Shown: piece by piece, positions 9,290 to 26,021 of the stretch
How positions within the stretch are numbered: the stretch's first letter is position 1
Layout: each line of letters opens with the position of its first letter
Assembly: GCA_963791045.1 (NCBI GenBank)
Contig: CAWBQK010000010.1
Location: forward strand, 32,001 to 96,000
Length of the DNA stretch: 64,000 nucleotides
Direction: 5' to 3'
From: Candidatus Latescibacterota bacterium
GTDB taxonomy: Bacteria > Krumholzibacteriota > Krumholzibacteriia > WVZY01
Translations under genes and position numbers: made by a program
The notes under the pieces: generated by a model
The model's input: only the letters and a program-made list of their open reading frames with translations
What the model was told of the DNA's origin: nothing
Database searches by the model: none

Positions 9290-12200
9290 TCAAGAGAGAA
9301 TCCATAACTGTCGTCCGCGCGTCACGACAGGCGGATCGAGAGTGCTGCCGATATACGCGAGATCCGCGGCGCTTTCGATCGTCCAATTGCCGAGCGGATT
9401 GGGCGATACGTCATCGTCACTCACCGGCGCGCCGTCGACAGTCCCCGACACGGCGGCGTTGATCGTGAACGTGCCGAGTTCGGATGTCGGTCGCACGGTC
9501 ACGCTCAGGGGAATCGTGACCCTCTGCGGGGCCTGCGGGGTTCCGGGGGGAACCGAAACCGCTGGAGAAATGGTTTGTGAGACACCGTCGTACGCGCCGC
9601 CGGAGAACGTAAAGGACACAAAGTCGATGAGCGCCTCGACAGGGCCCTGGTTCTCGACGGTCACCCGGATGACTCCCGTCTGTCCGCGGCTTACCGGCGA
9701 GTCGGCGCTGATGCCCAGAATCTCGATCGCCGTCAGGCGGAGCGAATTGACCGGGAGTGAAACGCCCGCCTTGGCATAGTCGGACTCGTATTCGTCCCGT
9801 CCGACAAAATCGACGACGGGCGTGTACTGCCCCGGATCCATTGCGCTGCTGATCTGACTCGATGAAAACGTAAGAGTGTCCGTCTGCCCGTCAAGGACCC
9901 ACGTCGCCGCCGTGAGGAACGCAGTGAAGGTCTCATTCCCGTCCGAAAACTTGAAAGCCGTTCCACCGAAAAGCCGCACATTGGTGGCGTTTTCGGTCTC
10001 GACATTAACGGTGAAGCCAACTGTCTGCCCGGCCTGCACAATCGATGGGGTCGGCCCGGAAACGACAGTGAGGTTCGGCACCGGCGCGAAGTACGACGTT
10101 GCCGTCGTCGTGGCCACGGGATTATCGAACGCGGTGAGCGTCACAACCGCCGCCTGCACCGTCGTCTCCACTATCGCGCCCGACCGGAGTATGAGCGAGA
10201 CCGTCCCGTCCGACGCGGTCGCCCGCTGGTGGCCCGGCGCGGGATCGACGTCGTCCGATTGAATCGTCCCTCGATCCGTCGAGACGGTAATGAGCGTGCC
10301 CGTGCTGACAATATTTCCGTAAGCATCCTGGATGGGGTCTGTCTGAATCGTGACCTCACTCGCGCCGTTCGCCGTGATCGTATCGGGCTCCGCCGACACA
10401 ACGATGGCATCCGGTATCCCCGGCTCGATCGCAATGGGAACACTCGTTCCCGTCGCCCCACCGCCCTGGGTTTCCGCTTCGATTTGTATCGGTCCGACGG
10501 TCTCCCACGCGAGTGTTGTCGCCGCCTGTCCGCCGGCGAGCTGTATGGGGTTCGTGCCGAATCCCGTGATGGCTCCGCCCGGGAGGACGCGGAGATCAAC
10601 AAAATTTGTCGCGGTCGTCACGAGATTGTCCTGAGCGTCGAGCGCCCGGACGGTAAATCCGAACGCGGTCCCCGCTTCTTCGGTTGTCACATCGGGAATA
10701 ACTTCATAACTCGCAATGTCGCCGGCAATCGATGTCACGGTAAACGTCTTCGTCTCGAGCGCCGGTGGATTCCCGTCCTTGATGCTCGAACGCACGTTGT
10801 GCGCGCCGGCCTGGCCCGACACGGTTAAGTCCACGGTCGCGACACCGGACGAATTCGTGCTCGTGATCCCGCCGTCGGACAGCGATGCGGTTCCATCCGG
10901 AGCGAGTGTAATCGTGAATACGACGGGTTCACCGGATACGGGATTCCCGTACTGGTCCGTGACCGTCACCGCGAGCGGCTGAACCTGCCCGACGGGGACC
11001 AACGTACTGTCTCCGGACGTGATGGTTACCTCGTAGGCCGTTGCGGGCACAATCGTGATCGTTGTGCTTGTATCTGCCGGCTCTCCGCCGCCCGTACTCA
11101 CAGTGAGGCCGGTCTGTTCGACAACATCATCGCTTACCGATGTTGTAAACGCGCCGTTCGTTAGTTGTCCCGAGGGCGGGCTAAAAACGGGGTTCCCCGT
11201 CGTGCTTCCGAATACGACGGTGGTAGCGTCATCGTCGACGGGGTTGTTGTTTGTATCGTAGGCCTGAACGGTCACGTTGACCGATTCGCCGGCGGTCCAC
11301 GTGGTCTTGTTCGGACTGAATGTGAAGAGATAATAAGAAATCGCCGTACTCGCCTGCGTGGTCACATCGAATTCGACCGCGTCGGTATAGGTGCCGTTGT
11401 CGAAGTTTGCGCGGACGCGGTTGAGACCAACGGTTGATCCCGTCGTGAGAACCGTCGAGACCAGGCCGTTTACGTCGCTCGTATCGGAGTCCGGCGCAAC
11501 CGAGGCTCCGCCCGGATTCTGGATGACCGAGAACGACACGGTCTGGCCCTGAACGTTGTTGTCGTAAATATCCCGTACTTCCGCCTCGAGAGGAGGCGTA
11601 TCGTTTCCAGCAATGATTCCCGTAAGTGGATCCGTGATTCGCGAGAGATGGTGGGCAATATTGGGCGACACTGTGACGGTGCCGCTGTACCCCGGCGATC
11701 CCGGTGCGCCGGAGACGCGAACCTTCATCGTCCTCGCTTTGTTGTACGTTTCGCCGACGGCGGCCTGACCCGACATGAGCGTCGCGCTCCGAACCGTCAG
11801 CTGTTCTCCGGCGGGAAGCTCGGCCTGTGTCCCCGCGTCCACAGCGTCGAGATCAATCGCGCTGTTCGCCCCGAGAACAGTATTGCCGTACTGATCTTTC
11901 GCGGTGACATTCACAACGAACGGATTACCGGCTACGACACTTACCACCGTGTTCACCACATACGTGGAGATGGTACCCGTATCGGTGATTTGAATCGTTT
12001 CATCGCCGGACCCAAGCACACTGCCGTCGTCCTCCGCCAAAAAGTCCCACGTGCCCGTAATAAATCCGCGCGCGTAGACGGTGACCTGTCCGCCGCTCAA
12101 CACGAACTGCGTTGTCGGGGTTCCAAAATCCGAGGCGCTGAATACGAGACCGCTTCCCGATTCGGGGACGATGTTGACGGTACTCGTGTTGGCACCGTCA

Positions 12201-15188
12201 AGATTTCCCGTCCCGTCAACCGCCTCGACAAGAAACGAAAACGTCTGACCGGCGTTCTGGGGGTCGGGCGTCGGTCCCGTGATCCGCAGAAGCGTCGCCT
12301 GTCCAACAACACTCGTGAACGTGACCGGGCTCACCGCGGCGGTGGCCTGATCGCCAAAGGCATCGATCGTATCTGACTGACCCGCGGTGGCCGGCGCCTC
12401 ATAGAGCACCGATATCTGGCCATTCGAATCGGTCAAACCGTTTTGGAGCGTAGGGCCGCCACTGGTCGGGTTGGTCGATCCGGGGTCGGATTTGAGAGAA
12501 CCCTGGGCAATATCGGAAATAAAAATCGAGACCTGTTTGTTCGGAACCGCGTTTCCATACGTATCAACGAGCGTCGCCTCGACGGGCGGAGCATCCGTCT
12601 CGACGGTGACATTCTGGCTCGCGGGGGTGAGCGTGATCTGGGTTCCCGCCCCCGGCGTACCCGTCGCACCGAATAGCACATCGACGGCAGGCGAACCGGT
12701 CAAATAAGCGGTCGCCGTATTGGAGCCGGTCGTCGTGCCCAGTCGCCAATCCTGGCAGGTTGCTTCACCCAGAATGTTCGTCGTCGCCTCGTTCTCGACG
12801 GGGCCGCCCGAAATGACATCGATTAAACCGCCGCCCGACACGACTTCAAACGTCACCGACGCGCCGTCGACGAGGTTGTCGTAGTCATCCTTGACACGGA
12901 CGACGAGATCGTTCGCGACGAACTGGTTGACCACGGCGGCTTGAGTGTTACCCGAGACGATTTCGATTTGCTTCTCCGGACCATTGTCGACGACGATGGA
13001 CCCCGAATTGTCCGACACGGGACCACTCTCCGCACCGAGCGTAATCGTCTCCTTTTTGAAGACCGTCACGTTCAAGACAGCGTTCCCGCCATCGAGCGGA
13101 TCGAATGTGTAGAATTTGCCGCCGCCATCCAGTCCAATTGTCCCCGACCCCGAACCTTCGGACCAGTTCCCCTCCGTCCCCGTCGTCGTTGTCGACACGT
13201 AGACTTTTCCCGCGTAATCGGTAATCACGTTTTCTTCCGCATCCCGGGCCTCGAGCGTCACCGGCTCGGGCGTTCCCGCCACGGCGTTCCCATCCACCGT
13301 CCACACAAACGTCGCCACCGCACCCGGCGTAAAATCGATCTCGACCGTGCCGGTGATCGGCGTTCCGTCGATCGTCGCGCTTACAGTCCTCGGACCGGTC
13401 GTCGTGCTCGCGAGGCGGCCCGTCGTCGTCCCGTCGACGCCGGTCAGCGTGGTCGGCTGCGTGAGAATCGCGCCGTCACCCGGCGGGTTGATCGAAAGCA
13501 CAACGAGCGCGCCTTCGATCAAGTTGTCGAATTCGTCTTTTGCCGTGATTGTGATGATGCTCTCGTCGGAGCCGTTCGCTTCGACCGAAAGCGGATTGGC
13601 CGCAATCTCGCTCAAATCCGGGTCCGCCGCGCCCGCGATGAACGCAACCGTCGCGCTGTCCGCGATCTCCACACCGTTCGCCGTTGCTCCCACCTTGACC
13701 ATCTCGGCCTTTGTGTTCCGTACAATTCCCTGGGCCTGGCCCGTCGGATCCGTCGGAGCCGGCGGGTTCACGGGGAGCGCACTTCCCGTCACACCGAGCG
13801 ACACGCTGGCGCCGGATACAGGGTTTCCGAATTCATCCCTCACGATCACGCTTACGGGGCTTTGATCAACGCCGTCCGCGACCGCTTCCGGATCGGTCGT
13901 CATGACCGTGGACATAGTCGAATGGACGGAGGCCGCATCGACCATCACGGTCGTCGTGCCGCTCAAGCCCGGCAGGAGTCCGTCGTCGGTGAGCATGATC
14001 ACGCGATGCGGCTCGTTCGCGTTCGTGTCCGTATTACGGTAGTCGATCACGGCGGTCTGGTCACCCGTATTCATCTGCAGAACCGCAACCGGGGTCGTGT
14101 GATCCGACGGAAGATAAAACTGACCCGAGGAAGACTCTTCCGGAGCGGGCGAAATTTCGGAAGCGTCTGCGGTGGGGGATGACGACAACAGGACCTGGCG
14201 GTTCTGCGTCAGGTTCGTTGGATTTCCATAGGCATCGACGACATCGATCGTGTAGGACAAAAATTGTCCCGCCGTGAATGTTGCGCCGTTGGGAGAAAGG
14301 ATGAGTCTTGCCGGCGGCCCCGGAATTACCGACTGCATCTGGGTCGCGTCTCCCCAGGATTGACCATTCGCTGAAGCGGTCAGGACGGGAGAACCCGGGA
14401 TCGTATCCGCATAGAAAAACGACACACCCGAAACCCCTGCCGGCATCAAAACACTGGTGATCGGCGCGCCTTCGCTCGTCGCGGCAAAAGAACCTGTTCC
14501 CGATGTCGACGAGAGGTCGATCCACTGACCGCTCGCCATTTCGCTCACGTTTCCATACACATCGCGGGCTTCAACGTAGATCGGTCCGCCCTCGCCGGTT
14601 GTCGCAAACACAAAGGCCGTGCTTGTAAACACGAGTTCGACGGCCGGCCCGCCTTTGAGATTGATCGTCGGCATATCGTTAATCGGAGACACCGCGACGC
14701 CCGTCGGGTCGCTTTCCACAACAAACGCGACCGCTGGATTTGCCGCCGTTGGCGGGGTAACGCGTGCACCCGGATTGGCGCCGCCACTGTCGTCGCCATA
14801 GACGATGGTGATAAGTTTGGGTTCGGGAAGGTCGTCGATGCCGATTGTCAAAATCTGCCCGGAAACCGACGGAGTCAATACGGCGCCGTGATCGCTGCTG
14901 ACGGTGACATAACCCGTTGAGGCGGGGTTTGTGACCTGTGGTGGCGCCCAACCGGCGGGAAACGTTACGGCAATGGTCCCGTTCGTGAAGTTATCGTCGG
15001 GATCATAAACAATCGTCCACGTCCCCGGCGTGATCAACAACGCCCGAGTCCGGCGTTATTGTCGCATCGCCGCTCCCGGGCCCGATCAATCCCGCGATCG
15101 CGGGCGCCGTGTTGCCGAGGAGAAAGAATGCAAAGGGGATAAGTATCAACAAACCGCGTAGTGGTCTAATAGCACGCAATTGAATCAC
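9290..15188 (-). CDS. N-terminal part of the giant invasin/intimin-like (Big_1) Ig-repeat surface protein
   Basis: 1916-aa ORF 9290..15040 with many DxYGN/DxFGN repeats (ADGVDQSPVSVIVRDEFGNPVSGASV). The signal peptide (LRGLLILIPFAFFLLGNTAPAIA) lies in a shifted frame at ~15040-15188, with a probable GTG start at 15188. Confidence 0.8.
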
Positions 15189-15233
15189 CGTATTGGTTAC
15201 AGGCCTTCGATTCCAATTACAAATCGGATGGAG

Positions 15234-15242
15234 ATTATAGCA
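15234..15242 (-). promoter_or_regulatory. Extended -10 promoter element (TGcTATAAT) for the giant adhesin operon
   Basis: Minus strand reads TGCTATAAT about 45 nt upstream of the predicted start. Confidence 0.5.
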
Positions 15243-15601
15243 CGAACCCGTCAACAAGCTGCAAAATGCGTGCCTTAGTTCCGGGTGGGCGCCGAGCAGG
15301 ACTTTCTCGCGCAAAATCAACGGGTTCCGTCGCCGATCGACCCCGATTTTGCACGATCGGGCCGTTTATCCGGGTGTAATCCCCCAACCGATAGCGAAAT
15401 TGCAATGAAAACGGGAAGTTAGACCCACCGGGGCCCCCTGGATCGGGCAAACCCGACCCGCGGGCTAGCATAACCCTAACCTATTGGCAAAAAATATTTT
15501 ACGCTGGAATTATTCTTGCGGATTCTGTCAGCCGGAACCCCATCCCTGAGATAGCCGGACGAGAAACAATCCCGTGACGCGTAACATGTTGATATATAAT
15601 A

Positions 15602-15985
15602 CTATCGAGGCCGAACCCGAACGACCGAGTTTTCCCCGGAGAAACCGTCTTCGACCGTCTCCGGATTGCTCGGATCCGATGTCCATTCGGTGCCGTTCAC
15701 AACGAATTTGTACTCGTAGACCCCTGGGGGGAGGTTGTAGTACAACGTCCATTGTCCATCGCCATTCTCGTCGACCATCGGGTCGGCGGTTGGTGACCAG
15801 TTGTTGAAATCGCCGACGATATAGACCTTTTTTGCATCCTGGTCGAAATACCGGAAAATCACTCCGTCCTCGACGATTTCAGGGCCCGCACCAATGCCCC
15901 CACCTTTCGAGCCGCCGAAGCAACCGGCGAGCGCAAAAGACAGGAATACAACGCCAAACACCAATCTCGTATGTTTAATACTCAT
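15602..15985 (-). CDS. Glycogen-binding (CBM48/AMPK1_CBM) domain lipoprotein
   Basis: MSIKHTRLVFGVVFLSFALAGC lipobox; AKKVYIVGDFNNWS...LPPGVYEYKFVVNGTEWTSDP is a CBM48 signature. Confidence 0.85.
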   Translation of the reverse strand: MSIKHTRLVFGVVFLSFALAGCFGGSKGGGIGAGPEIVEDGVIFRYFDQDAKKVYIVGDFNNWSPTADPMVDENGDGQWTLYYNLPPGVYEYKFVVNGTEWTSDPSNPETVEDGFSGENSVVRVRPR

Positions 15986-15992
15986 AAGTAGT

Positions 15993-16433
15993 TTACCGGA
16001 TTTCCAGCCGGTCGCTGTCGGAGTACAAAATGACCTGCGAACACGTGCCTGTCGGGCCACCGGATACCTCTTCAGGCACCCCCGGATCAAGATGCCACGT
16101 GTTTTCGTCCACCCAAAACAAATATTTGTACCGCCCTGCCGGCAACGCAACGGATATTTCCCAGATACCGTCGCTATCCTCATCCTTCATCAAACCGATA
16201 TTGGCCTCCCCGGCGCTGCCGTCTCCTCTCGCCCAGTTATTCTCGGGCCAGTTACCGGCGAGCTGAACCCTTCGCGCCGACGGAGAGTAGAACCGGAATA
16301 CGATTTCACCCTCCTTGACGGCGGGTCCCGCGCTCAGACTTCGGGGGGCGATATATCCGCAACCGGCCATCGTGCAGATCAGCACGGCGGCGATGATCAA
16401 ACCTGTTATTGCCCGTATACGGAGCATCATCAT
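15993..16433 (-). CDS. Glycogen-binding (CBM48/AMPK1_CBM) domain lipoprotein
   Basis: MAGC lipobox; ARRVQLAGNW..NNW...LPAGRYKYLFWVDENTWHLDP. Confidence 0.8.
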   Translation of the reverse strand: MMMLRIRAITGLIIAAVLICTMAGCGYIAPRSLSAGPAVKEGEIVFRFYSPSARRVQLAGNWPENNWARGDGSAGEANIGLMKDEDSDGIWEISVALPAGRYKYLFWVDENTWHLDPGVPEEVSGGPTGTCSQVILYSDSDRLEIR

Positions 16434-16443
16434 TCGGATTGTC

Positions 16444-18477
16444 CTAGAAGAACACGATCACTTCAAGTTTTAACACCCTGTTGTCCTGAAGGGATTCCTC
16501 CTGGCGGTGAATTCCCTCGCCCAGAACCGCCGCGTCGGCACGTCCCACCCCCACAGGAATCGCCTGACGAAGATGTTCAAGACGGCCGATATCGGAATAC
16601 TCGTTGATCACCGGATCGAGTACCACGGGATCGAACCCAAACCCCACACTTGCTTCCACCCAGTCCCTCCGGTACCCGGCTTCAAGGTAGAGCGAATAAA
16701 ATGTTTTGTTGAGCGACCACGAGTCTTTGTCGTAAACGGCAATTCGCGAGTCGAGCTGACCGTAGATATATTTGTAGATCCGATGATCCACCACCGCCCG
16801 GAGATCCGCGTATTCGACACCACCAAAAAATTCCCGCATCACCAGTGCGCCGCTCGCAAATACGGAGGTCCGCGCCGCGTCGGGAATTCGCGACAACCGC
16901 GACAACACGCGCTCGTTCCATACAAACGCGCCCCCAAACTGGGTGCTTCGCGGGTTATCGAACACGACCATATTCTCCACGGTCAATTTGTCGCGGTAGT
17001 CGAGCCAGAAGTTTCTCGCGGGCGTGAAGAAGTGGAAATCATCGGGCGTGGCGCCGTAGTCCTGATCGAGATATCCAAGTCTCGCTGTTGCTTTCCATTC
17101 GTCCGCGCCATACTCGAGGTCAACGCCCGTCGTTTGAATCGTTGCATCCGCGGGCTCGTACAAACCCGCTTTAAATTCGAAACGGCTCCACGAGTAATAC
17201 GCGCGCGCCGTCCACCGCGATTTTTCGTATTCGAGCGCTCCATGCCAGCGCTTGCTCGTCTGCATTGGAATCTTCTTGTCCGACGGGTCGGTATTTTGAC
17301 CGACCGAAATGTCACTACCCGAAACGGAAACCGGGTATGTCGACACCGCGTCGGTCCGGACATCGGCCGTCGCCCTTCCCAGCCCAGCAACGGCGGCGAG
17401 ATGCGACAAAAACCTCCAACGGAGCCACACTACGTCGGCGCCCCAGAATTCACGCGTTGTGTATGCCGTCGCCACGCCACCCGAATCGCCTTGTTCAACC
17501 GAGGCCAGTGTCCCCGGTTGAAATCCCTGGTTACCGCGTTTGACATATCCGAGCTTGAAACTCCCCAGGTCGGCAAATACTTCGAACCCCCACGTATCCA
17601 TCCCGCCAAATGTATTTTCGTAACCGTACACCGGCTTATCGCTCTCGCCCGCCAACTCTGTCGAATCGACGGCAACGGGCGGACCGGGACGCGTGCCGAT
17701 CTTGTCGGTGTAGAGCGCGCTGAATTCGACGTTCAACGGGAGCGGCAGCACCGCGGCGACACCGTGGCGTTCGTATCCGGCGTTGTAATCGAACACGCCG
17801 ACTTTTCCAAAAAGGTTAAACGGGTCGGACGATGTCCAGGTGGTGTCGTTTTCGAACCCCCTCACAACCTTGTCGTCAAAATGGAGGTCGATGAACCCGC
17901 GATCGAAATCGACCTGCGCTTTCAATGGCGAGAGACTCCACGAATCGTTCAACGTCTTGAAGTCGACGCTCGCGTCAATCCGCTTGCTCGAATGTTTAAA
18001 TATAAAATCGATCCGCTGGTCGGAACTGGTAGCACCGTCATCGAGCAAAAACGCCCCCGCATACCGAAGGTGCGGTTGAAGCACCGCGACGACTTCTTTC
18101 TCTACCTCCTCGGTCGACCCGAACGCAAGCATCCCACCCCGCTCTTCGAGAACCAGCACGGATCCCTTGGCCGCGTCCACCGGCGGGTTGTCGGGATCCA
18201 CGACCCACTCCCCATCGACCACAAACTTGTAACGGTAGGTTCCCGCGAGAAGAAACAGATACACCGAGTACTTTCCGTCGACCACTTCCATTTTTTCCAG
18301 CGTGGGGTTCCAATTGTTGAAATCCCCAACAAGGAAGACGTTCTTCGCTTGGGGCGCATCGAGCGTGAAAATAACTTCATCATCGACAATACGAACCGCC
18401 GCTCCGGACGTGCCGGCAATCATAACCGCCGCGAGCACGCAGACGATGAGGCATATGCAACCGGGCCGCTTTCTCAA
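16444..18477 (-). CDS. CBM48 domain fused to a putative outer-membrane beta-barrel
   Basis: Signal peptide; AKNVFLVGDFNNWN...GTYRYKFVVDGEWVVDP (CBM48); then ~550 aa of aromatic-rich amphipathic strands with a C-terminal Phe (LKLEVIVFF). Confidence 0.75.
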   Translation of the reverse strand: MRKRPGCICLIVCVLAAVMIAGTSGAAVRIVDDEVIFTLDAPQAKNVFLVGDFNNWNPTLEKMEVVDGKYSVYLFLLAGTYRYKFVVDGEWVVDPDNPPVDAAKGSVLVLEERGGMLAFGSTEEVEKEVVAVLQPHLRYAGAFLLDDGATSSDQRIDFIFKHSSKRIDASVDFKTLNDSWSLSPLKAQVDFDRGFIDLHFDDKVVRGFENDTTWTSSDPFNLFGKVGVFDYNAGYERHGVAAVLPLPLNVEFSALYTDKIGTRPGPPVAVDSTELAGESDKPVYGYENTFGGMDTWGFEVFADLGSFKLGYVKRGNQGFQPGTLASVEQGDSGGVATAYTTREFWGADVVWLRWRFLSHLAAVAGLGRATADVRTDAVSTYPVSVSGSDISVGQNTDPSDKKIPMQTSKRWHGALEYEKSRWTARAYYSWSRFEFKAGLYEPADATIQTTGVDLEYGADEWKATARLGYLDQDYGATPDDFHFFTPARNFWLDYRDKLTVENMVVFDNPRSTQFGGAFVWNERVLSRLSRIPDAARTSVFASGALVMREFFGGVEYADLRAVVDHRIYKYIYGQLDSRIAVYDKDSWSLNKTFYSLYLEAGYRRDWVEASVGFGFDPVVLDPVINEYSDIGRLEHLRQAIPVGVGRADAAVLGEGIHRQEESLQDNRVLKLEVIVFF

Positions 18478-19967
18478 AAATCACCCCGGAGTGTAATAAC
18501 CCACTGCGAAGACCCCGAACGGAGCACGCCAAGATCCCGGTCCTCGAGAACGAACGGATCATCCCCGAAGTACGAGCGTCCATACCCGACGTACGCAAAT
18601 ATGCGGTTGCTTGGCCGGTACTCGAGACGGAAGAACGTCGCCTGAGAGACTGTAAAATCCCGACTGAGAAGAAACCGCCAGTGCAGTCCCCAATCCGGCG
18701 TAATGACCATCTTGCCGTCCCACGCAAACAACCGTTCGGAATAAACCGTGTCGAGATCCTTCCACATGATATGGGCGCCGGTATGAAGTTTCTTAATCCG
18801 GTAACGCACGGCGCCGTGAACGTAGTTCTTTTTGGTTTCGATGGGCTGTTCATCGATCCGCCCCACACCCCCCCTGAGGAAACATTCCATCCCGTTCTTC
18901 AGAGCCGTCCATGCGCCCGCTTCGACAAAATCTCTCTCTTCGTTTTCGAGCACGCTGCGGGCGCTCTTGTGATAGAGAAGGCGTCCGCTGACACTCACAT
19001 CGGTGGCGAGAAAATATGCCGCCGCCGTTTGCCCGACCTGCGACCCTCCCGGCATACCCAGGTCGCTCACAAACTCTTCGCCAACGGCCTCATACTTCCA
19101 AACGACACCCAGTCGCCCGGCATCGGTTACGGGTATCGATCTCAACCTGACTTCGGCAAACGCCGCGCCGCCGCGCGGGAGAACCTGGCTGAAGTTGGTG
19201 CCGTCGTACGCGCCCCAATCGAACGATCCACCGGGGAGAAAGAACCCCGAATCCTCGTATCCGGATTGTTGATATGACACCGAGACAAACGCGAGTTTCC
19301 ACGCCGAACTCAGCTCCGTCTTGATCAACGCGTGGTTAAGCGGACCATGAACACCGGGGTCATCCATAAGATACGACGCAGAGAACGATGCGAGTCTGTG
19401 CGAGTAGAGAGCCTTCAGATAAGAGGCGCTCCGCGCGTCGCCCGGATCGTCTCCAAAAAGAGAGTACAAACCGGTGATGTCGAAACCGGACCGGGTCTTT
19501 ATATCGACACGCGCACCGCGGTTGTCTCCCGATTCTCCCGCCCGGTCATCGTCGATAAGGGGCGTTGTAAAATCGCAAACAAAGAATCGCCGCTCGTTGG
19601 CGAAGAGGCGGATTCCGTAGTCCCACGTCTCGAGCTTCTGGCTCCACAGATAGTCGCCCTGTTCAAATCGAAATCGTTTTTGGGTGTCGTTGTCGCCCAC
19701 AAATCCCCAGTAACCTGCCCCCTTGAGATACAGGCTGCCGTAACGGGTTTCGAGCGCCTTGAGATCGAGCATCAAACGAGTCCGGTCGATCGCCGCCTGG
19801 GTGGTGGCGTTCCACGGATACGGGTTCGACTGTTCATCGAGTAACAGCTGATACTCGAACCGGCCGCCGAACTCAACATTTCCTAAACGCGCGGCCTCCT
19901 GCGCGCGGACGGCCGGCGGCGCGAGCGCGACGAGGAGAACCAGTATGGAGATACCCCTCCTTACCAC
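18474..19967 (-). CDS. Putative outer-membrane beta-barrel protein, hypothetical
   Basis: Signal peptide (AVRA-Q), amphipathic beta strands, BAM-type C-terminus WVITLRGDF. Confidence 0.7.
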   Translation of the reverse strand: MVRRGISILVLLVALAPPAVRAQEAARLGNVEFGGRFEYQLLLDEQSNPYPWNATTQAAIDRTRLMLDLKALETRYGSLYLKGAGYWGFVGDNDTQKRFRFEQGDYLWSQKLETWDYGIRLFANERRFFVCDFTTPLIDDDRAGESGDNRGARVDIKTRSGFDITGLYSLFGDDPGDARSASYLKALYSHRLASFSASYLMDDPGVHGPLNHALIKTELSSAWKLAFVSVSYQQSGYEDSGFFLPGGSFDWGAYDGTNFSQVLPRGGAAFAEVRLRSIPVTDAGRLGVVWKYEAVGEEFVSDLGMPGGSQVGQTAAAYFLATDVSVSGRLLYHKSARSVLENEERDFVEAGAWTALKNGMECFLRGGVGRIDEQPIETKKNYVHGAVRYRIKKLHTGAHIMWKDLDTVYSERLFAWDGKMVITPDWGLHWRFLLSRDFTVSQATFFRLEYRPSNRIFAYVGYGRSYFGDDPFVLEDRDLGVLRSGSSQWVITLRGDF

Positions 19968-20869
19968 TCGCCCACCCCCTCTTCATCCAATTCCGGAAGC
20001 GATATCCCCACCGAAAAAAGATAGCTCAGCCCGAGCATGTCGTGCGATACGACACCGGCGTCGATTACAACGTTGGACACCTTGAGACCGATTCCGCCGG
20101 TGACGCTACCTTCGCGAAGACCGGACCGCAATCGCAGGAGCTTCCCCGCCTTGACTTCGATACCCAAGAGGTCACGCCACTTGCCGTCCTGTCCACGCTC
20201 GCGTTCATACACCATCGATACACGCCGGTCCCAATGATACGCGACGCCGATCGCGTGGACCATTTCGAGACTCGTCGGGCCGGCCCACGAGCCGCCTTCA
20301 CGTCCGTTGAGGGCGAAATCAAACTCGGGCTCACCGATGTTGCGAACCGTGTACCCGAAACCGATGACGGGAAAGGGCCGCAGGAGAACGGACAACACTC
20401 CGGAGACGGCGGTTTTCGAATCGGCTACACCGGGGTACGCGACATGGGTGACATCGATTGCGCCGCCAACCGAGAGCGAGGCGTCCTGCGACGTCCGTAT
20501 CAGATCGCGGCCGTAGGCCAGCGAAAAAAGGTCTTCGGAAGTTACTTCGGAGAGAGAGAATCGATGCCACGACAAACCAAACGCGCCGATTTTTGTCGGT
20601 ATCACGCCGGCGAGAAAATACTCGTTCAGGTCGGTCAATCCGTATGGCTGGGAAATTGTCGAGAGAACGCTCGCCGTCGGGATTTGCGTCAACCCCGCAG
20701 GGTTGTAGATGACGGCGCTCGCATCGTCCGCCACGCTGACAAACGCGCCGCCCATTGAGAACGCGCGGGAGGAAACATAGAGACGCTCGAAGTGGGCATC
20801 GGCCGTCACCGGCACGAGCACAGCCGCAAGGATAATCAGAAGAATGGTTGATCGCCGCCGAATTATCAA
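19961..20869 (-). CDS. PorV/PorQ (UPF0164)-like beta-barrel protein
   Basis: SSRAFSMGGAFVSVADDASAVIYNPAGL N-terminal motif; probable TTG start at 20869 ahead of a signal peptide. Confidence 0.75.
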   Translation of the reverse strand: MIIRRRSTILLIILAAVLVPVTADAHFERLYVSSRAFSMGGAFVSVADDASAVIYNPAGLTQIPTASVLSTISQPYGLTDLNEYFLAGVIPTKIGAFGLSWHRFSLSEVTSEDLFSLAYGRDLIRTSQDASLSVGGAIDVTHVAYPGVADSKTAVSGVLSVLLRPFPVIGFGYTVRNIGEPEFDFALNGREGGSWAGPTSLEMVHAIGVAYHWDRRVSMVYERERGQDGKWRDLLGIEVKAGKLLRLRSGLREGSVTGGIGLKVSNVVIDAGVVSHDMLGLSYLFSVGISLPELDEEGVGEW

Positions 20870-20882
20870 CGTGTCACTCCGT

Positions 20883-22034
20883 TTACCGAATGACCGCAAA
20901 CGATGCCCTGGCCGTATTCTTGATCGAACCGCTTCCCGCTCCCCCGGAGACCGCGATGATATAGACACCGCCGCCGACCGTGTCGCCGCGATCATCTTTG
21001 AAATCCCACTCGATCCCGAACTCGCCTTGCGAAAAATCGACAGGTTGATCGTCGATCAAATTGCGGACGGCATACCCCGCCGATGAAAACACCTTTGCCG
21101 TCACATAGACCGGCTCCGTGTAATCATCCGTATCGAGCACCACCGGAAATGTCGCCGGGACACCGTCCGACGGCGACAGGAGTTTCTTCTCCAGCTGAAT
21201 TCTTAGCGAGAACACCTGTCTCACCGTCGTGTCCTGCGCATCCGCTGATACGGCGTACGTCGCCTCGACCCTCGGCGAGATTCCCATATCGAGGATTCCA
21301 TCCGAATCCGAATCGAGCGGAATTCTTACATGATTGTCGGTGATTGCAACGCGTGTCGAATCGTTCTCGAGGACAATAGAAGGATCGGGTGCGGCGTCAC
21401 CCGCCCCGGTGCTTTCGCCGCCCGTAATGACGGCGAGAACGCCGAGGACCGGCTGCCCGGGCGGAACACGAACCCCCTCGGGCGCACGTTCATAATCGCC
21501 AAGCTGGTCCCACGGTATCGCCACCTCGAGTGCGCCGCCGTTCACCCCATCCTGGACATACATCGACTGGTACTTCCCGTCCTCGATCAGATTGAATGGG
21601 CTGACACAATCGACATAACCCACAACCGGCTCAGGAGACGTCCGGCTTACGCGCAGCAGGAGATTCGGGGACATTCCGCCAAATTCGATATTCCTCCGAA
21701 AATACTCCTGGGTGGCGAGATTCTCGACGCCGCCACAGGACACGTCGAGAAACAACATCAAAGTGCTCGTCATGGTAACGGCGGGTACAGCCACGTATAT
21801 ATTGTAATTATCCCATGTTACGGCAATCGCTTCGACCTCGTTATCGCGTCCCCAACGGGAATCTCCTGGGCGTTCGCGAAACGCCGTCGCCGAGTCGAGC
21901 ACCCACTCGTCATCCTCAAAGTCGACGGGGCTGCCATCGATGATTATGCGGGAACGGAGGTCGGGGGCGGTCGCTCCATAAACCGCCCCTGTGTGGAGGA
22001 GCAAGGCCACAGACAGAAGAATAGCACGAATCAT
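20883..22034 (-). CDS. Secreted protein with a CBM9/DOMON-like carbohydrate-binding domain and a FlgD-Ig-like CTD
   Basis: Signal peptide; IIIDGSPVDF...VTWDNYNIYVAV...LEVAIPW (CBM9-like pattern); C-terminal KVFSSAGYAVRNL...WDFKDDRGDTVGGGVY. Confidence 0.65.
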   Translation of the reverse strand: MIRAILLSVALLLHTGAVYGATAPDLRSRIIIDGSPVDFEDDEWVLDSATAFRERPGDSRWGRDNEVEAIAVTWDNYNIYVAVPAVTMTSTLMLFLDVSCGGVENLATQEYFRRNIEFGGMSPNLLLRVSRTSPEPVVGYVDCVSPFNLIEDGKYQSMYVQDGVNGGALEVAIPWDQLGDYERAPEGVRVPPGQPVLGVLAVITGGESTGAGDAAPDPSIVLENDSTRVAITDNHVRIPLDSDSDGILDMGISPRVEATYAVSADAQDTTVRQVFSLRIQLEKKLLSPSDGVPATFPVVLDTDDYTEPVYVTAKVFSSAGYAVRNLIDDQPVDFSQGEFGIEWDFKDDRGDTVGGGVYIIAVSGGAGSGSIKNTARASFAVIR

Positions 22035-22525
22035 TTTGGCGAGTCCCTCTCCTCATCCAGGCGCGTGAGACCTTCGAGCATCAGATGGTCGAGAGGGATA
22101 TCGATCCGGATTTCCTGAGACACCGGTGTCTTGCCGGTAAGAAACGTAAACGAGCCTTCCTGCCAGCGGACGACTTCAAAAATCACATCTTTGATCTGTT
22201 CGATCACTGCGCGTCGAAGATCGATTTCGTTTATGTGCCCATCTTCGATCAGGACAGCTCCTATCCGCTTTCTCTTTTTGCCGCGCTTCAAAAGCACCGC
22301 GTCAAGAAGCTCCTGATTAATGATTCCCGCCCTTATGAGATACTCGCCAATCTTCACCGGCCTGTTCTTTATCCCGGCAAAGGTAACGTTTCCATCTTCA
22401 AAGAATATGCTCGCCGAATTTTCGCTCCCCTTGAGCTTCAATTCACCCGTCGCCACGGCAAGGTTGAGCATCTGCATCACCGCAATCGGCTGGAATACCG
22501 CGAGATTTCCCTTAAGATCCGGCAT
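22031..22525 (-). CDS. DUF4388 (PATAN-like) domain protein with MshEN-like motifs
   Basis: LKGNL..F....VMQML....TGEL...IFFEDGNVTFA ... WQEGSFTF ... LMLEGL.RLDE. Confidence 0.8.
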   Translation of the reverse strand: MPDLKGNLAVFQPIAVMQMLNLAVATGELKLKGSENSASIFFEDGNVTFAGIKNRPVKIGEYLIRAGIINQELLDAVLLKRGKKRKRIGAVLIEDGHINEIDLRRAVIEQIKDVIFEVVRWQEGSFTFLTGKTPVSQEIRIDIPLDHLMLEGLTRLDEERDSPK

Positions 22526-23309
22526 CTTGCGTACCTTTCTTGATGTGTCTCACCCCGATGATCAGTTGGGAGACGATCACCGACCCAAATATAACCCCGA
22601 GAAACGGATACAACACCCCGCCAAACCGGGCACGCCACTCCATATCCGTTTGTGAAAGTACAATGATCAGTATACCAGCGACGGCCTGGAGTACACCAAC
22701 TATTTTGCCCACCGGCGTCGCCTTGAATTTCAACGGCCCAGCAACAATCCGCGCAACCACCGCGCCGGCCAAAAGAGTCACGTATCTCGCAAGCAGGACT
22801 ATCAGCACCCACGCTGGGATGAAGCCTCTGACAAAGAAAGCAGCAAAAAGCCCGGCGGTCGTAACAATGTCAGCCGCGGGATCCATGACGACGCCAAACT
22901 CGGTTTCCCGGTGCGTCCGCCGCGCGACAATCCCGTCGGCGATGTCCGTCAAACCCGACAACACATACAATGCGAGCGCGCCCATCATTCGATCGTGGAT
23001 GACGAGCATGACAATCGGCACGGCGAGGAGAAAACGGGAGAAGGTGAGCTTGTTTGCCCAACCGAGGACGGGTTGTCCACCGCCGGAGCAGTCGCACAGA
23101 AGCCCGATGTTGAACAGGACAAACGCGAGGAAAACCACACCGCCCACAGTGGAAAAGATCGCGATTGTTGCAAAGAGTCCGGGGCCGGACGACAAACAGG
23201 CGACCGCCAGAATGGCGAGGACCACGATGTGGCACAACATAAAAAACCGGACGATCTCGTAAACGAGCGTCCGGTTTTTGTCGATTTCAATGATCGAGCC
23301 CACTGTCAC
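22512..23309 (-). CDS. CDP-alcohol phosphatidyltransferase family protein (PgsA-like)
   Basis: ANKLT..R and DIADGIVARR...FGVVMDPAAD signature; multiple TM helices. Confidence 0.85.
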   Translation of the reverse strand: MTVGSIIEIDKNRTLVYEIVRFFMLCHIVVLAILAVACLSSGPGLFATIAIFSTVGGVVFLAFVLFNIGLLCDCSGGGQPVLGWANKLTFSRFLLAVPIVMLVIHDRMMGALALYVLSGLTDIADGIVARRTHRETEFGVVMDPAADIVTTAGLFAAFFVRGFIPAWVLIVLLARYVTLLAGAVVARIVAGPLKFKATPVGKIVGVLQAVAGILIIVLSQTDMEWRARFGGVLYPFLGVIFGSVIVSQLIIGVRHIKKGTQDAGS

Positions 23310-25957
23310 TTCTTCAGCGACGCCTGTGCCGCCGCCAGCCGGGCCACGGGCACCCTGTACGGCGAGCAGCTCACATACTGCAGTCCGACATCGTCAAAGA
23401 ACTCGATAGAGGCGGGATCTCCGCCGTGCTCGCCGCACACACCAAGCTTGATGTCTGGTTTGGTCTTCTGCCCGCGCTCAACGGCAAGGCGGACGAGTCC
23501 ACCGACACCTTTTACATCGAGAGAATCGAAAGGATCCCCGGGAAGCACACTCTTCTCCACATAATCCTTGAGAAACTTGCCCGAATCATCACGGCTGAAC
23601 CCAAACGTCATCTGGGTCAGATCATTGGTTCCAAAACTGAAGAAATCGGCTACCTCGGCAATCTCGTCGGCCACGACGGCAGCCCTGGGCACTTCGATCA
23701 TCGTACCGATGAGATACGGTATATCCATGCCTTCCCTTTCGAGAACGGCGTCGCCGACCCGGGCTATCATCTCGCGGAGCAGCGCGAGTTCGGCTTTGGT
23801 TCCCACCAGTGGGACCATAATCTCCGGCTGAACGTCCACGCCCTCGCGTTTTGCCAGGACGGCCGCTTCGAGTATCGCCTCGGCCTGGGTTTCATAGATC
23901 TCGGGATAGGTAATTCCGAGACGGCATCCCCGGTGCCCAAGCATCGGATTGAACTCGTGCAAATTCTCAATCGCCGCCTCGATCTCTTCCACCGAACGCC
24001 CGATCACTTTCGCCGTGCTGGCAATCTCGGCGGCCTCTTTGGGTAGGAACTCATGGAGCGGCGGATCGAGAAGACGGATCGTCACGGGCTTGCCGTTCAT
24101 CGCCCTGAACACGCCAAGGAAATCATCGCGCTGCATCGGCTGAATCTTCTTGAGCGCGGCAATGCGCTCGTCTTGATTCGACGCCATGATCATTTCCCGT
24201 ACCACGGGAATCCGGTCTTCGGCGAAAAACATATGTTCGGTTCTTGCGAGCCCGATTCCCTCGGCGCCGAACTCGACAGCGATTCGGGCGTCTTCGGGCG
24301 TATCGGCGTTCGCGCGGACCTTCATACGACGGTGTTCGTCCGCCCATCCCATGAACTTATGATAGTAGTCGTCGAGAACAGGATCGACGGTGGGCAAGAC
24401 ACCCTCGAACACACTACCCGTGGTGCCGTCGACCGTAACTTCGGTACCGGCTTGATAGGTCTTACCATCAACCGTGAATGTTCTCTTATCGTAGTCAACG
24501 GAGAGTTTCGAGCAACCGGCGACACAGCACTTGCCCATCCCGCGGGCAACAACCGCCGCGTGCGAGGTCATCCCGCCGCGCGCGGTGACGATCGCCTCCG
24601 CCGCCTTCATTCCCTCGACATCTTCCGGGGACGTTTCGAGCCGCATCAACACAACCTTGTCGCCCGCCGCGACCCGACTCAGCGCCTCTTCGACCGAGAA
24701 GACCACGTGCCCGCAAGCGGCCCCCGGAGACGCGGGAAGCCCCTTCGCAATCGGCTCCGCTTTGATAGAAGGGTCGATCATCGGGTGGAGGAGCGTTTCG
24801 ACCTGGTTTGCATCGACACGGAGTATCGCTTCCTTTTGGTTAATGAGCCCCTCATCAACCATGTCAATCGCAATGCGGATGGCCGCGCGCCCCGTCCTCT
24901 TGCCGTTTCGGGTTTGGAGCATCCATAGCTTACCCTTTTGGATCGTAAACTCGATATCCTGCATGTCGCGGTAATGCAACTCGAGATTTTTGTAAATCGA
25001 TTCGAGTTCGCCATAGATCGACGGCATCGTTGCCTCGAGACTCTTCGCGGATAATTCGCTCGACCCGTCCTTATTTATTGGCAGCGGTGTCCGGATGCCC
25101 GCAACAACGTCTTCACCCTGCGCGTTCGCCAGATATTCGCCAAAAAACCGCTGCTCGCCCGTCGCCGGGTCACGTGTAAACGCGACACCGGTCGCACAGT
25201 CATCACCCATATTTCCAAACACCATCGCCTGAACGTTCACGGCGGTGCCCCAGTGGTGGGGAATGGCGTTCATCCCTCTGTATTTGACGGCACGGTTTCC
25301 ATTCCACGATTTGAACACCGCGGTGATGGCGCCCCACAGCTGTTCCATCGGCTCTTCCGGAAACGGAATGCCTTTTTCTCGTTTGACTATTTGCTTGTAA
25401 GTTTCGATAAGACTCTTGAGGTCATCGACGGACAATTCGTTGTCAAGATTGGCCCCAACTTCTTCCTTCTTCGCGTGGATGGCCTTTTCGAAAAGTTCAT
25501 GCTCGACATCCATCACCACATTTCCATACATGTGGATGAACCGACGATAGCTGTCGAACGCAAACCTGGGATTTTCCGTGCGATCGATAAGCGCCTGGAC
25601 CGTTGTATCGTTCAACCCGAGGTTGAGAACGGTGTCCATCATTCCGGGCATCGACGTTCTCGCGCCCGAACGTACGGACATGAGGAGCGGGTTATCGCCG
25701 TCTCCGAATTTCGAACCCATTACCTTTTCAACCTTGGAGATATTTTCCTCGACTTCTCCGGTGAGAACGTCCGGATAATTTCCATTGTTATTCATAAAAA
25801 GAGTGCACACTTCGGTAGAAATCGTAAAACCAGGGGGGACCGGTATTTCGAGGTTGGTCATCTCGGCCAGGTTGGCGCCTTTGCCGCCCAGGAGATTTCG
25901 CATGGTCGCGTTCCCCTCAGCCTTGCCTTCGCCGAAGAAATAGACGTGCTTCGACAT
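23306..25957 (-). CDS. ppdK: Pyruvate, phosphate dikinase
   Basis: LLGGKGANLAEM, SVRSGA, GGMTSHAAVVARGMG (phospho-His), SFGTNDLTQ, GVCGEHGGDP; 883 aa. Confidence 0.97.
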   Translation of the reverse strand: MSKHVYFFGEGKAEGNATMRNLLGGKGANLAEMTNLEIPVPPGFTISTEVCTLFMNNNGNYPDVLTGEVEENISKVEKVMGSKFGDGDNPLLMSVRSGARTSMPGMMDTVLNLGLNDTTVQALIDRTENPRFAFDSYRRFIHMYGNVVMDVEHELFEKAIHAKKEEVGANLDNELSVDDLKSLIETYKQIVKREKGIPFPEEPMEQLWGAITAVFKSWNGNRAVKYRGMNAIPHHWGTAVNVQAMVFGNMGDDCATGVAFTRDPATGEQRFFGEYLANAQGEDVVAGIRTPLPINKDGSSELSAKSLEATMPSIYGELESIYKNLELHYRDMQDIEFTIQKGKLWMLQTRNGKRTGRAAIRIAIDMVDEGLINQKEAILRVDANQVETLLHPMIDPSIKAEPIAKGLPASPGAACGHVVFSVEEALSRVAAGDKVVLMRLETSPEDVEGMKAAEAIVTARGGMTSHAAVVARGMGKCCVAGCSKLSVDYDKRTFTVDGKTYQAGTEVTVDGTTGSVFEGVLPTVDPVLDDYYHKFMGWADEHRRMKVRANADTPEDARIAVEFGAEGIGLARTEHMFFAEDRIPVVREMIMASNQDERIAALKKIQPMQRDDFLGVFRAMNGKPVTIRLLDPPLHEFLPKEAAEIASTAKVIGRSVEEIEAAIENLHEFNPMLGHRGCRLGITYPEIYETQAEAILEAAVLAKREGVDVQPEIMVPLVGTKAELALLREMIARVGDAVLEREGMDIPYLIGTMIEVPRAAVVADEIAEVADFFSFGTNDLTQMTFGFSRDDSGKFLKDYVEKSVLPGDPFDSLDVKGVGGLVRLAVERGQKTKPDIKLGVCGEHGGDPASIEFFDDVGLQYVSCSPYRVPVARLAAAQASLKK

Positions 25958-26021
25958 CTGTCACTCGCTTTCGGTTGGAATGATTTTTCTGGGATAATAA
26001 ATCCGGACCTGATGGCCAGCG

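Follow-up and report, generated by a model that had tools for sequence, protein, structure and literature searches.

We consider the chances evenly balanced that six genes in the 64,000-nucleotide stretch of DNA analyzed here (the window), which comes from an uncultured Krumholzibacteriota bacterium, encode a TonB-independent outer-membrane glycan-binding complex, probably an oligo- or polysaccharide gate with an ancestral specificity for alpha-glucans and CBM48 domains as plugs (Table 1). A broader proposal, which we hold only tentatively, is that the module represents an undescribed class of TonB-independent translocon for glycans, found in phyla other than Bacteroidota that possess a T9SS, namely Krumholzibacteriota and Cloacimonadota. 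In such a translocon, 22- to 24-strand barrels of new families would receive gating and specificity from CBM48 lumen plugs, either lipoproteins or fused domains, and would work with a T9SS-anchored surface binder as a functional replacement for SusCD.

Table 1. Genes of the module and its flanking genes, with positions in the window
Gene	Position	Strand	Description
g6	20883-22034	minus	383 aa, secreted; N-terminal beta-rich domain and probable C-terminal T9SS-type CTD (~residues 290-383)
g5	19961-20869	minus	302 aa; distant PorV/PorQ/PorP-family outer-membrane protein
g4	18474-19967	minus	497 aa; plug-less beta-barrel of ~24 strands; C-terminus ...RGDF
g3	16444-18477	minus	677 aa; signal peptide, CBM48 (~residues 25-118), linker, ~22-strand barrel; C-terminus ...IVFF
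g2	15993-16433	minus	146 aa CBM48 lipoprotein; lipobox MAGC; 13-residue insertion
g1	15602-15988	minus	128 aa CBM48 lipoprotein; lipobox LAGC
g0	9290 to about 15320		Giant Big_1/invasin-like adhesin; 4 Big_1 and 5 Invasin_D3 stretches
g7	22031-22525		DUF4388 (96.8 bits); MshE-type c-di-GMP-binding motif NF053729 (40.7 bits, cut-off 38)

The initial annotation had described six coupled, envelope-targeted genes, and all six were recovered on one strand, where neighboring genes either overlap by 4-7 nt or lie 4-13 nt apart. The start of g5 was reassigned to a TTG at 20869, which provides a signal peptide; the ORF start originally listed, 20995, overlaps g6. As that annotation had also stated, neither a TonB-dependent receptor nor a glycoside hydrolase family was found in the window, and the same was true of SusD, based on the 40 ORFs scanned out of 45 picked.

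Gene order was kept in 8/8 loci from two families of the order, and the core g5-g4-g3-lipoprotein was kept in eight further loci (families f4, f5, f6, and f8) and in f7. The core was also present in three Cloacimonadota-type contigs at 20-29% identity, so that the neighborhood conservation proposed earlier as a check extends across families of Krumholzibacteriota and into a second lineage. The module is single copy in 31 of 35 genomes of the order and is translationally coupled to genes for PPDK and a CDP-alcohol phosphatidyltransferase. These are housekeeping neighbors, as might be expected of an envelope-biogenesis machine such as an LptDE equivalent or a BAM accessory, and the predicted plug-and-barrel arrangement described below also resembles LptDE. 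Such a housekeeping role is nevertheless extremely unlikely: family f3 lacks the module in 60/60 genomes (57 of which carry GH13), the window's genome encodes a separate Bacteroidota-type LptD (PF19838, 173 bits) on contig C6, and the plugs are starch-binding-type CBMs and not LptE-like proteins.

AlphaFold2 predicted g4 (pLDDT 82.9, pTM 0.74, about 24 strands) and g3 (pLDDT 83.7, CBM48 plus about 22 strands) as barrels, in agreement with the two barrels proposed from the sequence. The g3 barrel has very long strands at residues 306-382 and C-terminal helices. Neither barrel belongs to a Pfam or NCBIfam family, with no Pfam match even at E 10, and hhalign detected no homology between the two (probability 0.6%). 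The g4 family is rare, with 118 representative proteins among 1.84 billion. The best structural matches of g4 were the FimD and PapC usher barrels (Z 18.6 and 18.5; 357-361 residues aligned at 9% identity), followed by a second tier at Z 14-15, and those of the g3 barrel were generic, the best reaching Z 15.3. Of the known barrels raised earlier for comparison, LamB appeared among the generic matches (Z 12-14).

Three known families were considered for the barrels and rejected. A TonB-dependent transporter or SusC identity for g3 or g4 (plug domain PF07715 and TonB_dep_Rec barrel) had no Pfam match at E 10, and TonB-dependent transporter barrels were generic structural matches at Z 12-14. A fimbrial usher identity for g4 (PF00577) likewise had no Pfam match, and only the 24-strand barrel aligned. 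LptD (PF04453, PF19838) did not match g3 or g4, the genome's LptD_2 lying at C6:343158-344246.

All three CBM48 proteins passed the gathering score of PF02922 (cut-off 22.4), with 46.4 bits for g1, 31.0 for g2, and 33.6 for g3; for PF16561 (cut-off 26.8), g1 (52.1 bits) and g3 (49.5 bits) passed and g2, at 19.0 bits, fell below. The lipobox cysteine was kept in 11/11 sequences of the g1 family and 12/12 of the g2 family, and the description of two stand-alone CBM48 lipoproteins and a CBM48-barrel fusion was thus borne out. Mature g3 starts directly with the first strand of its CBM48, and the f7 counterpart of g1 follows a g2-like domain within one fused lipoprotein.

The three domains differ in how well their sugar-contact positions are preserved. 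g1 aligned to the AMPK beta1 CBM (1z0n, E 1.8e-9), in which we take W100, K126, W133, L146, and N150 to be the sugar contacts and used them as reference positions; the list reportedly derives from Polekhina et al. 2005. In g1, the two tryptophans, the lysine, and the asparagine were each present in 11/11 homologues, with the leucine replaced by phenylalanine, so that g1 retains all five sugar-contact positions and with them the full AMPK-beta-type sugar-binding signature. Homologues of g3 had the first tryptophan and the lysine in 10/10, the second tryptophan in 8/10, and the asparagine in 0/10; in those of g2, the tryptophans were found in 12/12 and 11/12, and the lysine and asparagine in 0/12. 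Two of the five positions are therefore lost in g2 and one or two in g3. The closest solved relatives of g1 and g2 were AMPK-beta, SEX4, pullulanase, and glucoamylase starch-binding modules. CBM48 domains are not confined strictly to alpha-glucans. For the g3 CBM48, the structure that matched best was a feruloyl-esterase module (8bbp, Z 11.4).

Multimer modelling, which had been proposed to examine the complex, placed g2 within the g4 barrel, entering from the periplasmic side. The ipSAE of this pair was 0.86, 0.86, and 0.87, compared with 0.01 for the best of three controls. Of 157 solved complexes, 116 attained that mark, as did 2 of 215 mismatched pairs. The co-fold, a model built on shallow alignments (36 and 14 rows), had 183-190 contacts with a partner pLDDT of 83-84, and the runs shared at least 77% of contacts. 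The predicted interface touches almost every strand of g4 and includes 9 of its 23 invariant residues. Residue 29 of g2, just past the lipidated Cys25, contacts the short g4 turns 321-324 and 354-356, which are read as periplasmic in the model. The prediction is therefore of an LptDE-like plug-and-barrel arrangement. The initial annotation had called the system a surface machine; for the CBM48 parts this is doubtful, because the co-fold puts g2 inside the barrel from the periplasm.

The genome of the window has a genuine T9SS, with SprA (544 bits), PorU-PorV, about 50 CTD proteins, and about 10 PorV-family paralogues. g6 carries a signal peptide. Its probable CTD, already noted in the initial annotation, draws support from the profile, which matched the PorU CTD (6za2 residues 1065-1154, E 4e-4) as well as FlgD Ig. 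By Pfam, 8 of 10 g6 homologues matched PF13860 (best E 2.2e-4), and the window's own g6 had no match at E 0.1. The suggestion that g6 is CBM9-like found no HMM support: 0/10 homologues matched any CBM9 model (PF06452) at E 0.1, and its sole basis was language-model atlas neighbors in CBM9/Por_Secre_tail clusters (scores 0.88), 30-35% of whose members carry CBM9_1.

The PorV-like label of g5 stands in part. All 12 homologues matched NF033709 below the cut-off, with 11/12 matching PorQ and 9/12 PorV2. For g5 itself, NF033709 gave 39.5 bits against a cut-off of 90, the other PorV/PorQ models (NF033711 and NF052325) gave 20.0 against 220 and 27.4 against 325, and the match was limited to the N-terminal ~90 residues. 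g5 also showed about 25% identity (tblastn) to the PorP_SprF part of the window ORF at 2940-4865. By analogy with known pairs, g5 is likely the anchor for the g6 CTD.

These features could also belong to an accessory that assists the T9SS in sorting or anchoring and mirrors, on a small scale, the SprA translocon and its PorV and Plug partners. In that case, g5 would shuttle or anchor CTD cargo (g6 or the neighboring giants), g4 and g3 would be extra barrels, and the CBM48 domains would be structural plugs with no sugar ligand. Besides the PorV/PorQ-family relationship of g5, the PorU-like CTD of g6, and the PorV-family paralogues, this possibility draws on the predicted plugging of g4 by g2 from the periplasm, as Plug does for SprA, on the persistence of the module where alpha-glucan enzymes are absent, and on the giant CTD/Big_1 proteins that follow the module in families f1, f2, f5, and f8. 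In addition, g1 (21.4 bits, E 1e-4) and g3 (17.7 bits, E 1.4e-3) weakly matched the T9SS plug model NF052315, covering only model positions 282-346 in its C-terminal part. These scores compare with a cut-off of 100, which nothing in the genome exceeded, and PDB matches of the g2 profile (E up to 10) included starch-binding modules but no T9SS plug chain. The sugar-contact positions kept in g1, the embedding of the f6/f7 modules within alpha-glucan loci, and the absence of g6 from the module in f5 and f8 also argue against an accessory role, and adjacency to CTD cargo is weak evidence because there are more than 50 CTD genes per genome. On balance, we regard this explanation as possible but rather unlikely.

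Another explanation centers on g0, for which the module would be a display or secretion apparatus, a split inverse autotransporter whose separately encoded barrels carry the Ig-repeat passenger. g0 follows g1 in 8/8 loci of the order and in the f5/f8 loci, its Big_1 and Invasin_D3 stretches come with no barrel of their own, and g4 is similar to the usher pores, through which folded Ig-like subunits travel. However, g0 is not beside the module in f4, f6, or f7, and it is separated from g1 by ~400 nt, in contrast to the tight coupling among the six module genes. Because PPDK is conserved at the same position in the same clade, local synteny cannot serve as functional evidence for g0. The CBM48 domains would also be left without a role, and we consider this explanation distinctly improbable.

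Returning to a glycan gate, the genomic tie to alpha-glucans comes from families f6 and f7. The f7 locus reads, in order, GH13 with CBM48 and Por_Secre_tail, GDE_C, 3xCBM48-GH13, a 1902-aa g6-like protein carrying Glucodextran_C and a CTD, g5, g4, g3, and the double-CBM48 lipoprotein. In f6, the locus holds a GH57, a GDE_C protein bearing a signal peptide, a lipoprotein SBP of a sugar ABC system, and 3xCBM48-GH13. GH13 lies 7-8 kb from g4 in 6/6 module-bearing f6/f7 genomes.

The window's genome, which is 81% complete, presents a different picture. No match to PF00128, PF08323, PF00343, PF02446, or PF00723 was found in it, and neither GH13, GH57, GH77, GH15, glycogen synthase, nor phosphorylase was detected; its single PF03065 match, considered as a GH57, proved to be a GH38 mannosidase. 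A tblastn search of this genome with the f6/f7 GH13, GDE_C, GH57, and SBP proteins returned only CTD and CBM48 pieces. A relative with a closed chromosome (G010) has the full module, yet GH13, GH77, and GH15 were not found in it, and GH13 is absent from 25 of 31 g4-bearing genomes of the order. Among 151 sampled genomes of the phylum, GH13 occurred in 23 of 64 module-bearing genomes (leaving 41 without it) and in 74 of 87 module-less genomes, a negative association on the co-occurrence check proposed earlier.

The maltodextrin or glycogen capture complex originally proposed therefore survives in part. A conserved envelope complex with no SusC/D, the f6/f7 modules within alpha-glucan loci, and the sugar positions kept in g1 speak for it, but the window's genome and most of the order have no detectable alpha-glucan enzyme. 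The alternative offered with it, alpha-glucan export, is unsupported, because the operon contains no synthase or glycosyltransferase and the linked loci are catabolic (amylases, debranching enzyme, and uptake SBP). More generally, an export channel for an exopolysaccharide, whether alpha-glucan or other, could be regulated through g7, a c-di-GMP-binding DUF4388 protein whose gene lies just upstream and overlaps the g6 start by 4 nt, and wide barrels are typical of polymer export. However, no Wzx/Wzy, ABC exporter, or OPX protein was found in the operon, a glycogen synthase (PF08323) was not found in the genome, and g7 is not beside the module in f6/f7, making this explanation very improbable.

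Under the gate hypothesis, g6 would be exported via the genome's type IX secretion system and, by analogy, its CTD would be tethered at the cell surface by the PorV/PorQ-like g5. Passage through the membrane would fall to g4 and g3, two wide barrels with predicted folds and no internal plug domains. CBM48 beta-sandwiches may line and shut these barrels from the periplasmic side, with g2 predicted to plug g4 in trans, inside the lumen, and the N-terminal CBM48 of g3 possibly plugging its own barrel in cis. g1, with its sugar-binding signature, is a candidate periplasmic receiver for the incoming sugar chain, and binding to CBM48 in the periplasm could make diffusion directional without TonB energy. 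In f6 and f7, the gate would serve complete starch or glycogen loci. Since such enzymes are missing from the window's lineage, the module may now bind a different ligand there or act in adhesion.

Outer-membrane polysaccharide uptake is known mainly from the TonB-dependent SusCD of Bacteroidota and, in Proteobacteria, from specific porins of small size, LamB among them. Within the same superphylum, many uncultured phyla secrete glycoside hydrolases through a T9SS but have few or no SusCD pairs. For the step by which the products of these enzymes cross the outer membrane, the module offers a concrete candidate, with a genomic tie to starch loci in two families. It contains two barrel families that have no annotation, and the predicted CBM-in-barrel architecture would be a new use of a carbohydrate-binding module. 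That the module is also conserved in lineages where alpha-glucan metabolism was not detected is a puzzle.

Several known systems share parts of this design. The SprA-PorV-Plug translocon of the T9SS, reportedly described by Lauber et al. 2018, has a comparable set of parts, namely a barrel that is wide, a partner from the PorV family, and a plug in the periplasm. The C-terminal region of the plug is weakly CBM48-like. SprA is encoded separately in the window's genome, g3 and g4 do not match SprA, and scores against the plug model fall far short of its cut-off. The maltoporin LamB and the cyclodextrin porin CymA are likewise TonB-independent, sugar-specific passages for alpha-glucan oligomers, and both were among the generic structural matches (Z 12-14). 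They are single-chain channels of 18 or 14 strands with an internal aromatic slide, whereas the module has barrels of 22-24 strands and its aromatic binding residues come from a separate or fused CBM48.

FimD and PapC, the best structural matches of g4, have a 24-strand barrel that a similarly sized beta-sandwich plug closes. g4 has neither the N-terminal and C-terminal domains nor the internal plug domain of ushers, no chaperone gene lies nearby, its identity to them is 9%, and the plug of the module is a separate lipoprotein. LptD-LptE also holds a small lipoprotein in the lumen of a large barrel from the periplasm, as predicted for g2 and g4. The two systems are unrelated in fold and sequence, the module has a CBM48 as its plug and not LptE, the cargo is presumably a glycan and not LPS, and the genome's true LptD is encoded elsewhere (C6).

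The g6-g5 pair, in which a CTD-protein gene lies directly upstream of a PorV/PorP-family barrel, resembles the way in which PorP/SprF- and PorQ/PorV-type proteins anchor CTD proteins of the T9SS (Gorasia et al. 2022, PMC9143113). The scores of g5, however, fall short of all curated cut-offs, two more barrels and CBM48 lipoproteins are encoded alongside the pair, and the lineage is not Bacteroidota.

The module of f6 and f7 can be compared with SusC/SusD and SusE/F/G, the starch utilization system of Bacteroidota, being an outer-membrane apparatus encoded in a locus for starch or glycogen together with glycan binders at the surface and lipoproteins bearing starch-binding modules. Unlike Sus, it shows no match to a TonB-dependent receptor, a plug domain, or SusD, and its barrels belong to no family. 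Its surface protein is probably T9SS-anchored and not a lipoprotein, and its CBM lipoprotein is predicted to lie inside the barrel and not atop it.

The six genes g1 to g6 are arranged head-to-tail on the minus strand across 15602..22034. Adjacent genes overlap by 4-7 nt or are separated by 4-13 nt, and all six products carry signal peptides. The lipobox cysteine was conserved in all 11 family members of g1 and all 12 of g2. The coordinates, coupling, signal peptides and lipoboxes confirm the six-gene envelope cluster proposed in the initial annotation. For g5, the listed ORF opens at 20995 inside g6; read instead from the TTG at 20869, the protein has a normal signal peptide and begins where its homologues do.

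Features of the module and other genes of the window
Feature	Position	Strand	Length	Remark
g6, CTD-bearing surface protein	20883-22034	minus	383 aa	
g5, PorV/PorQ-like	19961-20869	minus	302 aa	
g4, barrel	18474-19967	minus	497 aa	
g3, CBM48-barrel fusion	16444-18477	minus	677 aa	
g2, CBM48 lipoprotein	15993-16433	minus	146 aa	
g1, CBM48 lipoprotein	15602-15988	minus	128 aa	
DUF4388 protein	22031-22525	minus		MshE-type c-di-GMP-binding motif NF053729, 40.7 bits (cut-off 38)
CDP-alcohol phosphatidyltransferase	22512-23309			upstream of module, tightly coupled
Pyruvate phosphate dikinase (PPDK)	23306-25957			upstream of module, tightly coupled
g0, giant Big_1/Invasin_D3 protein	9290 to about 15320	minus		starts ~400 nt downstream of module
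Lipoprotein-like protein	28049-30382	minus	777 aa	
Glycyl-tRNA synthetase beta subunit, two ORFs	39954-41723, 41720-42127	minus		4-nt overlap
Protein with FlgD_ig CTD	4862-8965	minus	1366 aa	
PorP/SprF-like protein fused to TPR repeats	2940-4865	minus		

The DUF4388 gene, which stands between the phosphatidyltransferase gene and g6, is translationally coupled, and its position is kept in the families f1 (that of the window's genome), f2, f5 and f8. Promoter and terminator counts in 14900-26400 did not exceed the shuffled expectation, and neither tRNA genes nor Rfam families were detected in the window. Downstream of the module, alignment with the intact homologues at loci L037 and L041 showed that a frameshift near 15031-15039 breaks g0 in two, with the signal peptide and first ~40 residues in one frame (ORF 15003-15320) and the other 1916 residues in another (ORF 9290-15040), reflecting either an assembly error or a pseudogene. 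Elsewhere in the window, the two glycyl-tRNA synthetase beta ORFs cover PF02092 positions 1-130 and 133-534 and represent either a frameshift or a real split. The 777-aa protein with a lipoprotein-like N-terminus belongs to no Pfam or NCBIfam family, and its conserved relatives, at 27-67% identity, are encoded close to PPDK in several of the phylum's families.

We further analyzed the domains of the module proteins. Both lipoproteins, g1 and g2, and the N-terminal part of g3 matched Pfam CBM_48 above the cut-off, as originally assigned, and g1 aligned to the AMPK beta1 glycogen-binding module with an E value of 1.8e-9. The PorV-like assignment of g5 held in part: the NCBIfam PorV/PorQ model matched, but below its cut-off (39.5 bits versus 90), likewise in 12/12 homologues tested, and a g5 profile found nothing relevant among PDB sequences. 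While g6 itself has no Pfam match, the CTD ascribed to it was supported by a profile of 10 homologues that matches the PorU C-terminal sorting domain (6za2, E 4e-4), and 8 of the 10 match FlgD_ig. The N-terminal domain of g6 was CBM9-like only by its language-model neighbours; none of the 10 homologues matched a CBM9 HMM. The window's genome (3.66 Mb, 21 contigs, 81% complete) encodes a genuine T9SS, including SprA (544 bits) and PorU (555 bits) directly followed by PorV (217 bits), with ~50 C-terminal sorting domains and ~ten PorV-family paralogues. In the mechanism that we propose, the T9SS would export g6, and g5 would hold it at the surface. The PorP/SprF-like TPR fusion of the window, which is encoded directly downstream of the 1366-aa FlgD_ig protein, looks like an anchor with its cargo.

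Both proposed barrels were predicted as barrels by AlphaFold2. The g4 model, built from 36-row alignments, was confident and all-beta (pLDDT 82.9, pTM 0.74), with ~24 strands joined by short turns on one side and by long loops on the other. The g3 model (pLDDT 83.7, pTM 0.72) placed a low-confidence linker between a CBM48 sandwich and a ~22-strand barrel in which some strands are 24 residues long. No Pfam or NCBIfam family was matched by g4 or by the g3 barrel, even with E values up to 10. The top structural matches of g4 were the FimD/PapC usher pores (Z 18.6/18.5, 357-361 residues aligned; next tier Z 14-15), and the search with g3 (Foldseek, VIA-align), whose model is larger than the size for which VIA is reliable, gave a best Z of 15.3 with no stand-out among porins and TBDT barrels. 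These two wide barrels would be closed and lined by CBM48 domains. No homology between them was detected (BLASTP; hhalign probability 0.6%). DUF6029, a language-model lead for the g3 barrel, was rejected, with no HMM support and no Pfam match at E 10. P0112 (1137 aa), a candidate Rosetta-stone fusion of g4 and g3, retains the g3 signal peptide downstream of a diverged g4 tail and was treated as a read-through or frameshift call.

The neighbourhood is conserved, with the order PPDK-transferase-DUF4388-g6-g5-g4-g3-g2-g1-g0 kept in 8/8 loci from two families, and g4 is present as a single copy in 31 of the 35 genomes of the order. Elsewhere in the phylum, a g4 profile picked up diverged copies in the families f5 (24/33 genomes), f4 (4/5), f8 (4/6), f6 (5/10) and f7 (1/9), with none in f3 (0/60). 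The core of g5, g4, g3 and a lipoprotein stays together in each of eight such loci as its surroundings vary; f5 and f8 lack g6, f6 and f4 have one lipoprotein, and the f6 module adjoins neither PPDK nor g0. Display of the giant adhesin g0, as an alternative role for the module, appears improbable. Among 1.84 billion representative proteins, the profile matched 118, and the most distant full-length matches carry the name Candidatus Cloacimonadota; three Cloacimonadota-type metagenome contigs encode, in the module's order, g6-like, g5-like and g4-like proteins followed by a CBM48 protein, at 20-29% identity. Taken together, the conserved loci, diverged copies, Cloacimonadota-type contigs and small number of representatives show that the module is real, old and narrow in distribution. 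A role in envelope housekeeping is the least probable of the readings, with very little likelihood; the Bacteroidota-type LptD of the window's genome is encoded away from the module (a PF04453 LptD search was negative in this genome, but also in a Bacteroides control genome). No published description of the module was found in searches of the literature on Krumholzibacteriota, Cloacimonadota, CBM48, T9SS, starch and the outer membrane.

The genes around the f6 and f7 modules point to alpha-glucans. In f7 (genome G040), those directly upstream encode a GH13 enzyme with CBM48 and a Por_Secre_tail CTD, a GDE_C debranching enzyme, a 3xCBM48-GH13 amylase, and a 1902-aa protein combining a g6-like N-terminus, a Glucodextran_C binding module and a CTD. 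The f7 lipoprotein (L066:916-1650) carries a g2-like and then a g1-like CBM48 in one chain, which ties g2 and g1 together. The f6 module (genome G039) has as neighbours a GH57 4-alpha-glucanotransferase that lacks a signal peptide and a CBM53 protein with a CTD; the divergent flank encodes a GDE_C protein bearing a signal peptide, as well as a sugar ABC binding lipoprotein and a 3xCBM48-GH13 protein. Co-occurrence with GH13, suggested as a check in the initial annotation, was found locally, with a GH13 gene 7-8 kb from g4 in all six module-bearing f6 and f7 genomes (5 genera), but not overall: GH13 occurred in 23/64 module-bearing versus 74/87 other genomes, a tally over one set of 151 related genomes that is a description and not a statistical test.

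Against an alpha-glucan role in this lineage, none of GH13, glycogen synthase, phosphorylase, GH77 and GH15 was matched in the window's genome, which is 81% complete; its sole GH57 match proved to be a GH38 mannosidase, and tblastn with the f6/f7 enzymes recovered CTD and CBM48 fragments only. GH13 is absent from 25 of the 31 g4-bearing genomes of the order, and because the closed chromosome of G010 carries the whole module without GH13, GH77 or GH15, incompleteness is not the only explanation for these absences. All six CBM48 domains of the window's genome are on envelope proteins and none on an enzyme. A Fibrobacter paper (PMC6851124) mentions CBM48 solely on GH9 enzymes. On contig C9 of the window's genome (261399-263418), a porin-like barrel with a C-terminal CBM48 adjoins an anti-sigma-like membrane protein that likewise has a CBM48 as its extracytoplasmic C-terminus, a second envelope use of this domain in a GH13-less genome and possibly a glycan-sensing pair.

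The reading with the best support, to which we give roughly even odds, is that the module is a TonB-less outer-membrane glycan gate whose tie to alpha-glucan use is ancestral or at least recurrent. In the window's own GH13-less order, it may bind another glycan, act in adhesion with g0 or feed unrecognised enzymes. Polymer export, which includes the alpha-glucan export initially suggested, is highly unlikely.

Finally, the two lipoproteins were compared at the five positions that correspond to the sugar contacts of AMPK beta1. All are kept by g1 in 11/11 homologues and two are lost in g2, whose profile has starch-binding modules as its nearest solved sequences; this pattern would fit g2 acting as a plug and g1 in binding. 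Co-folding of g4 (residues 25-496) with mature g2 (26-146) in three runs gave ipSAE values of 0.86, 0.86 and 0.87 with 183-190 contacts, at least 77% of them in common, and a partner pLDDT of at least 83; the best of three controls reached 0.01. The ipSAE mark, reached by 116/157 solved complexes and 2/215 mismatched pairs, is a rough guide because our own alignments were used. The g4 side of the interface draws on nearly every strand; of the 23 invariant g4 residues, 9 lie there, most of them charged. Short turns of barrels usually face the periplasm, and those of g4 at 321-324 and 354-356 touch g2 residue 29, four residues past the lipidated cysteine, suggesting that g2 would fill the g4 lumen from the periplasmic side; the model supports binding without showing it.

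A BAM study (PMC12611786) offers a precedent for a lipoprotein of CBM fold that plays a structural part. That the module is an accessory for T9SS sorting or anchoring, its CBM48 plugs being purely structural, is a possibility we regard as unlikely. In its predicted place inside g4, g2 resembles LptE in LptD.
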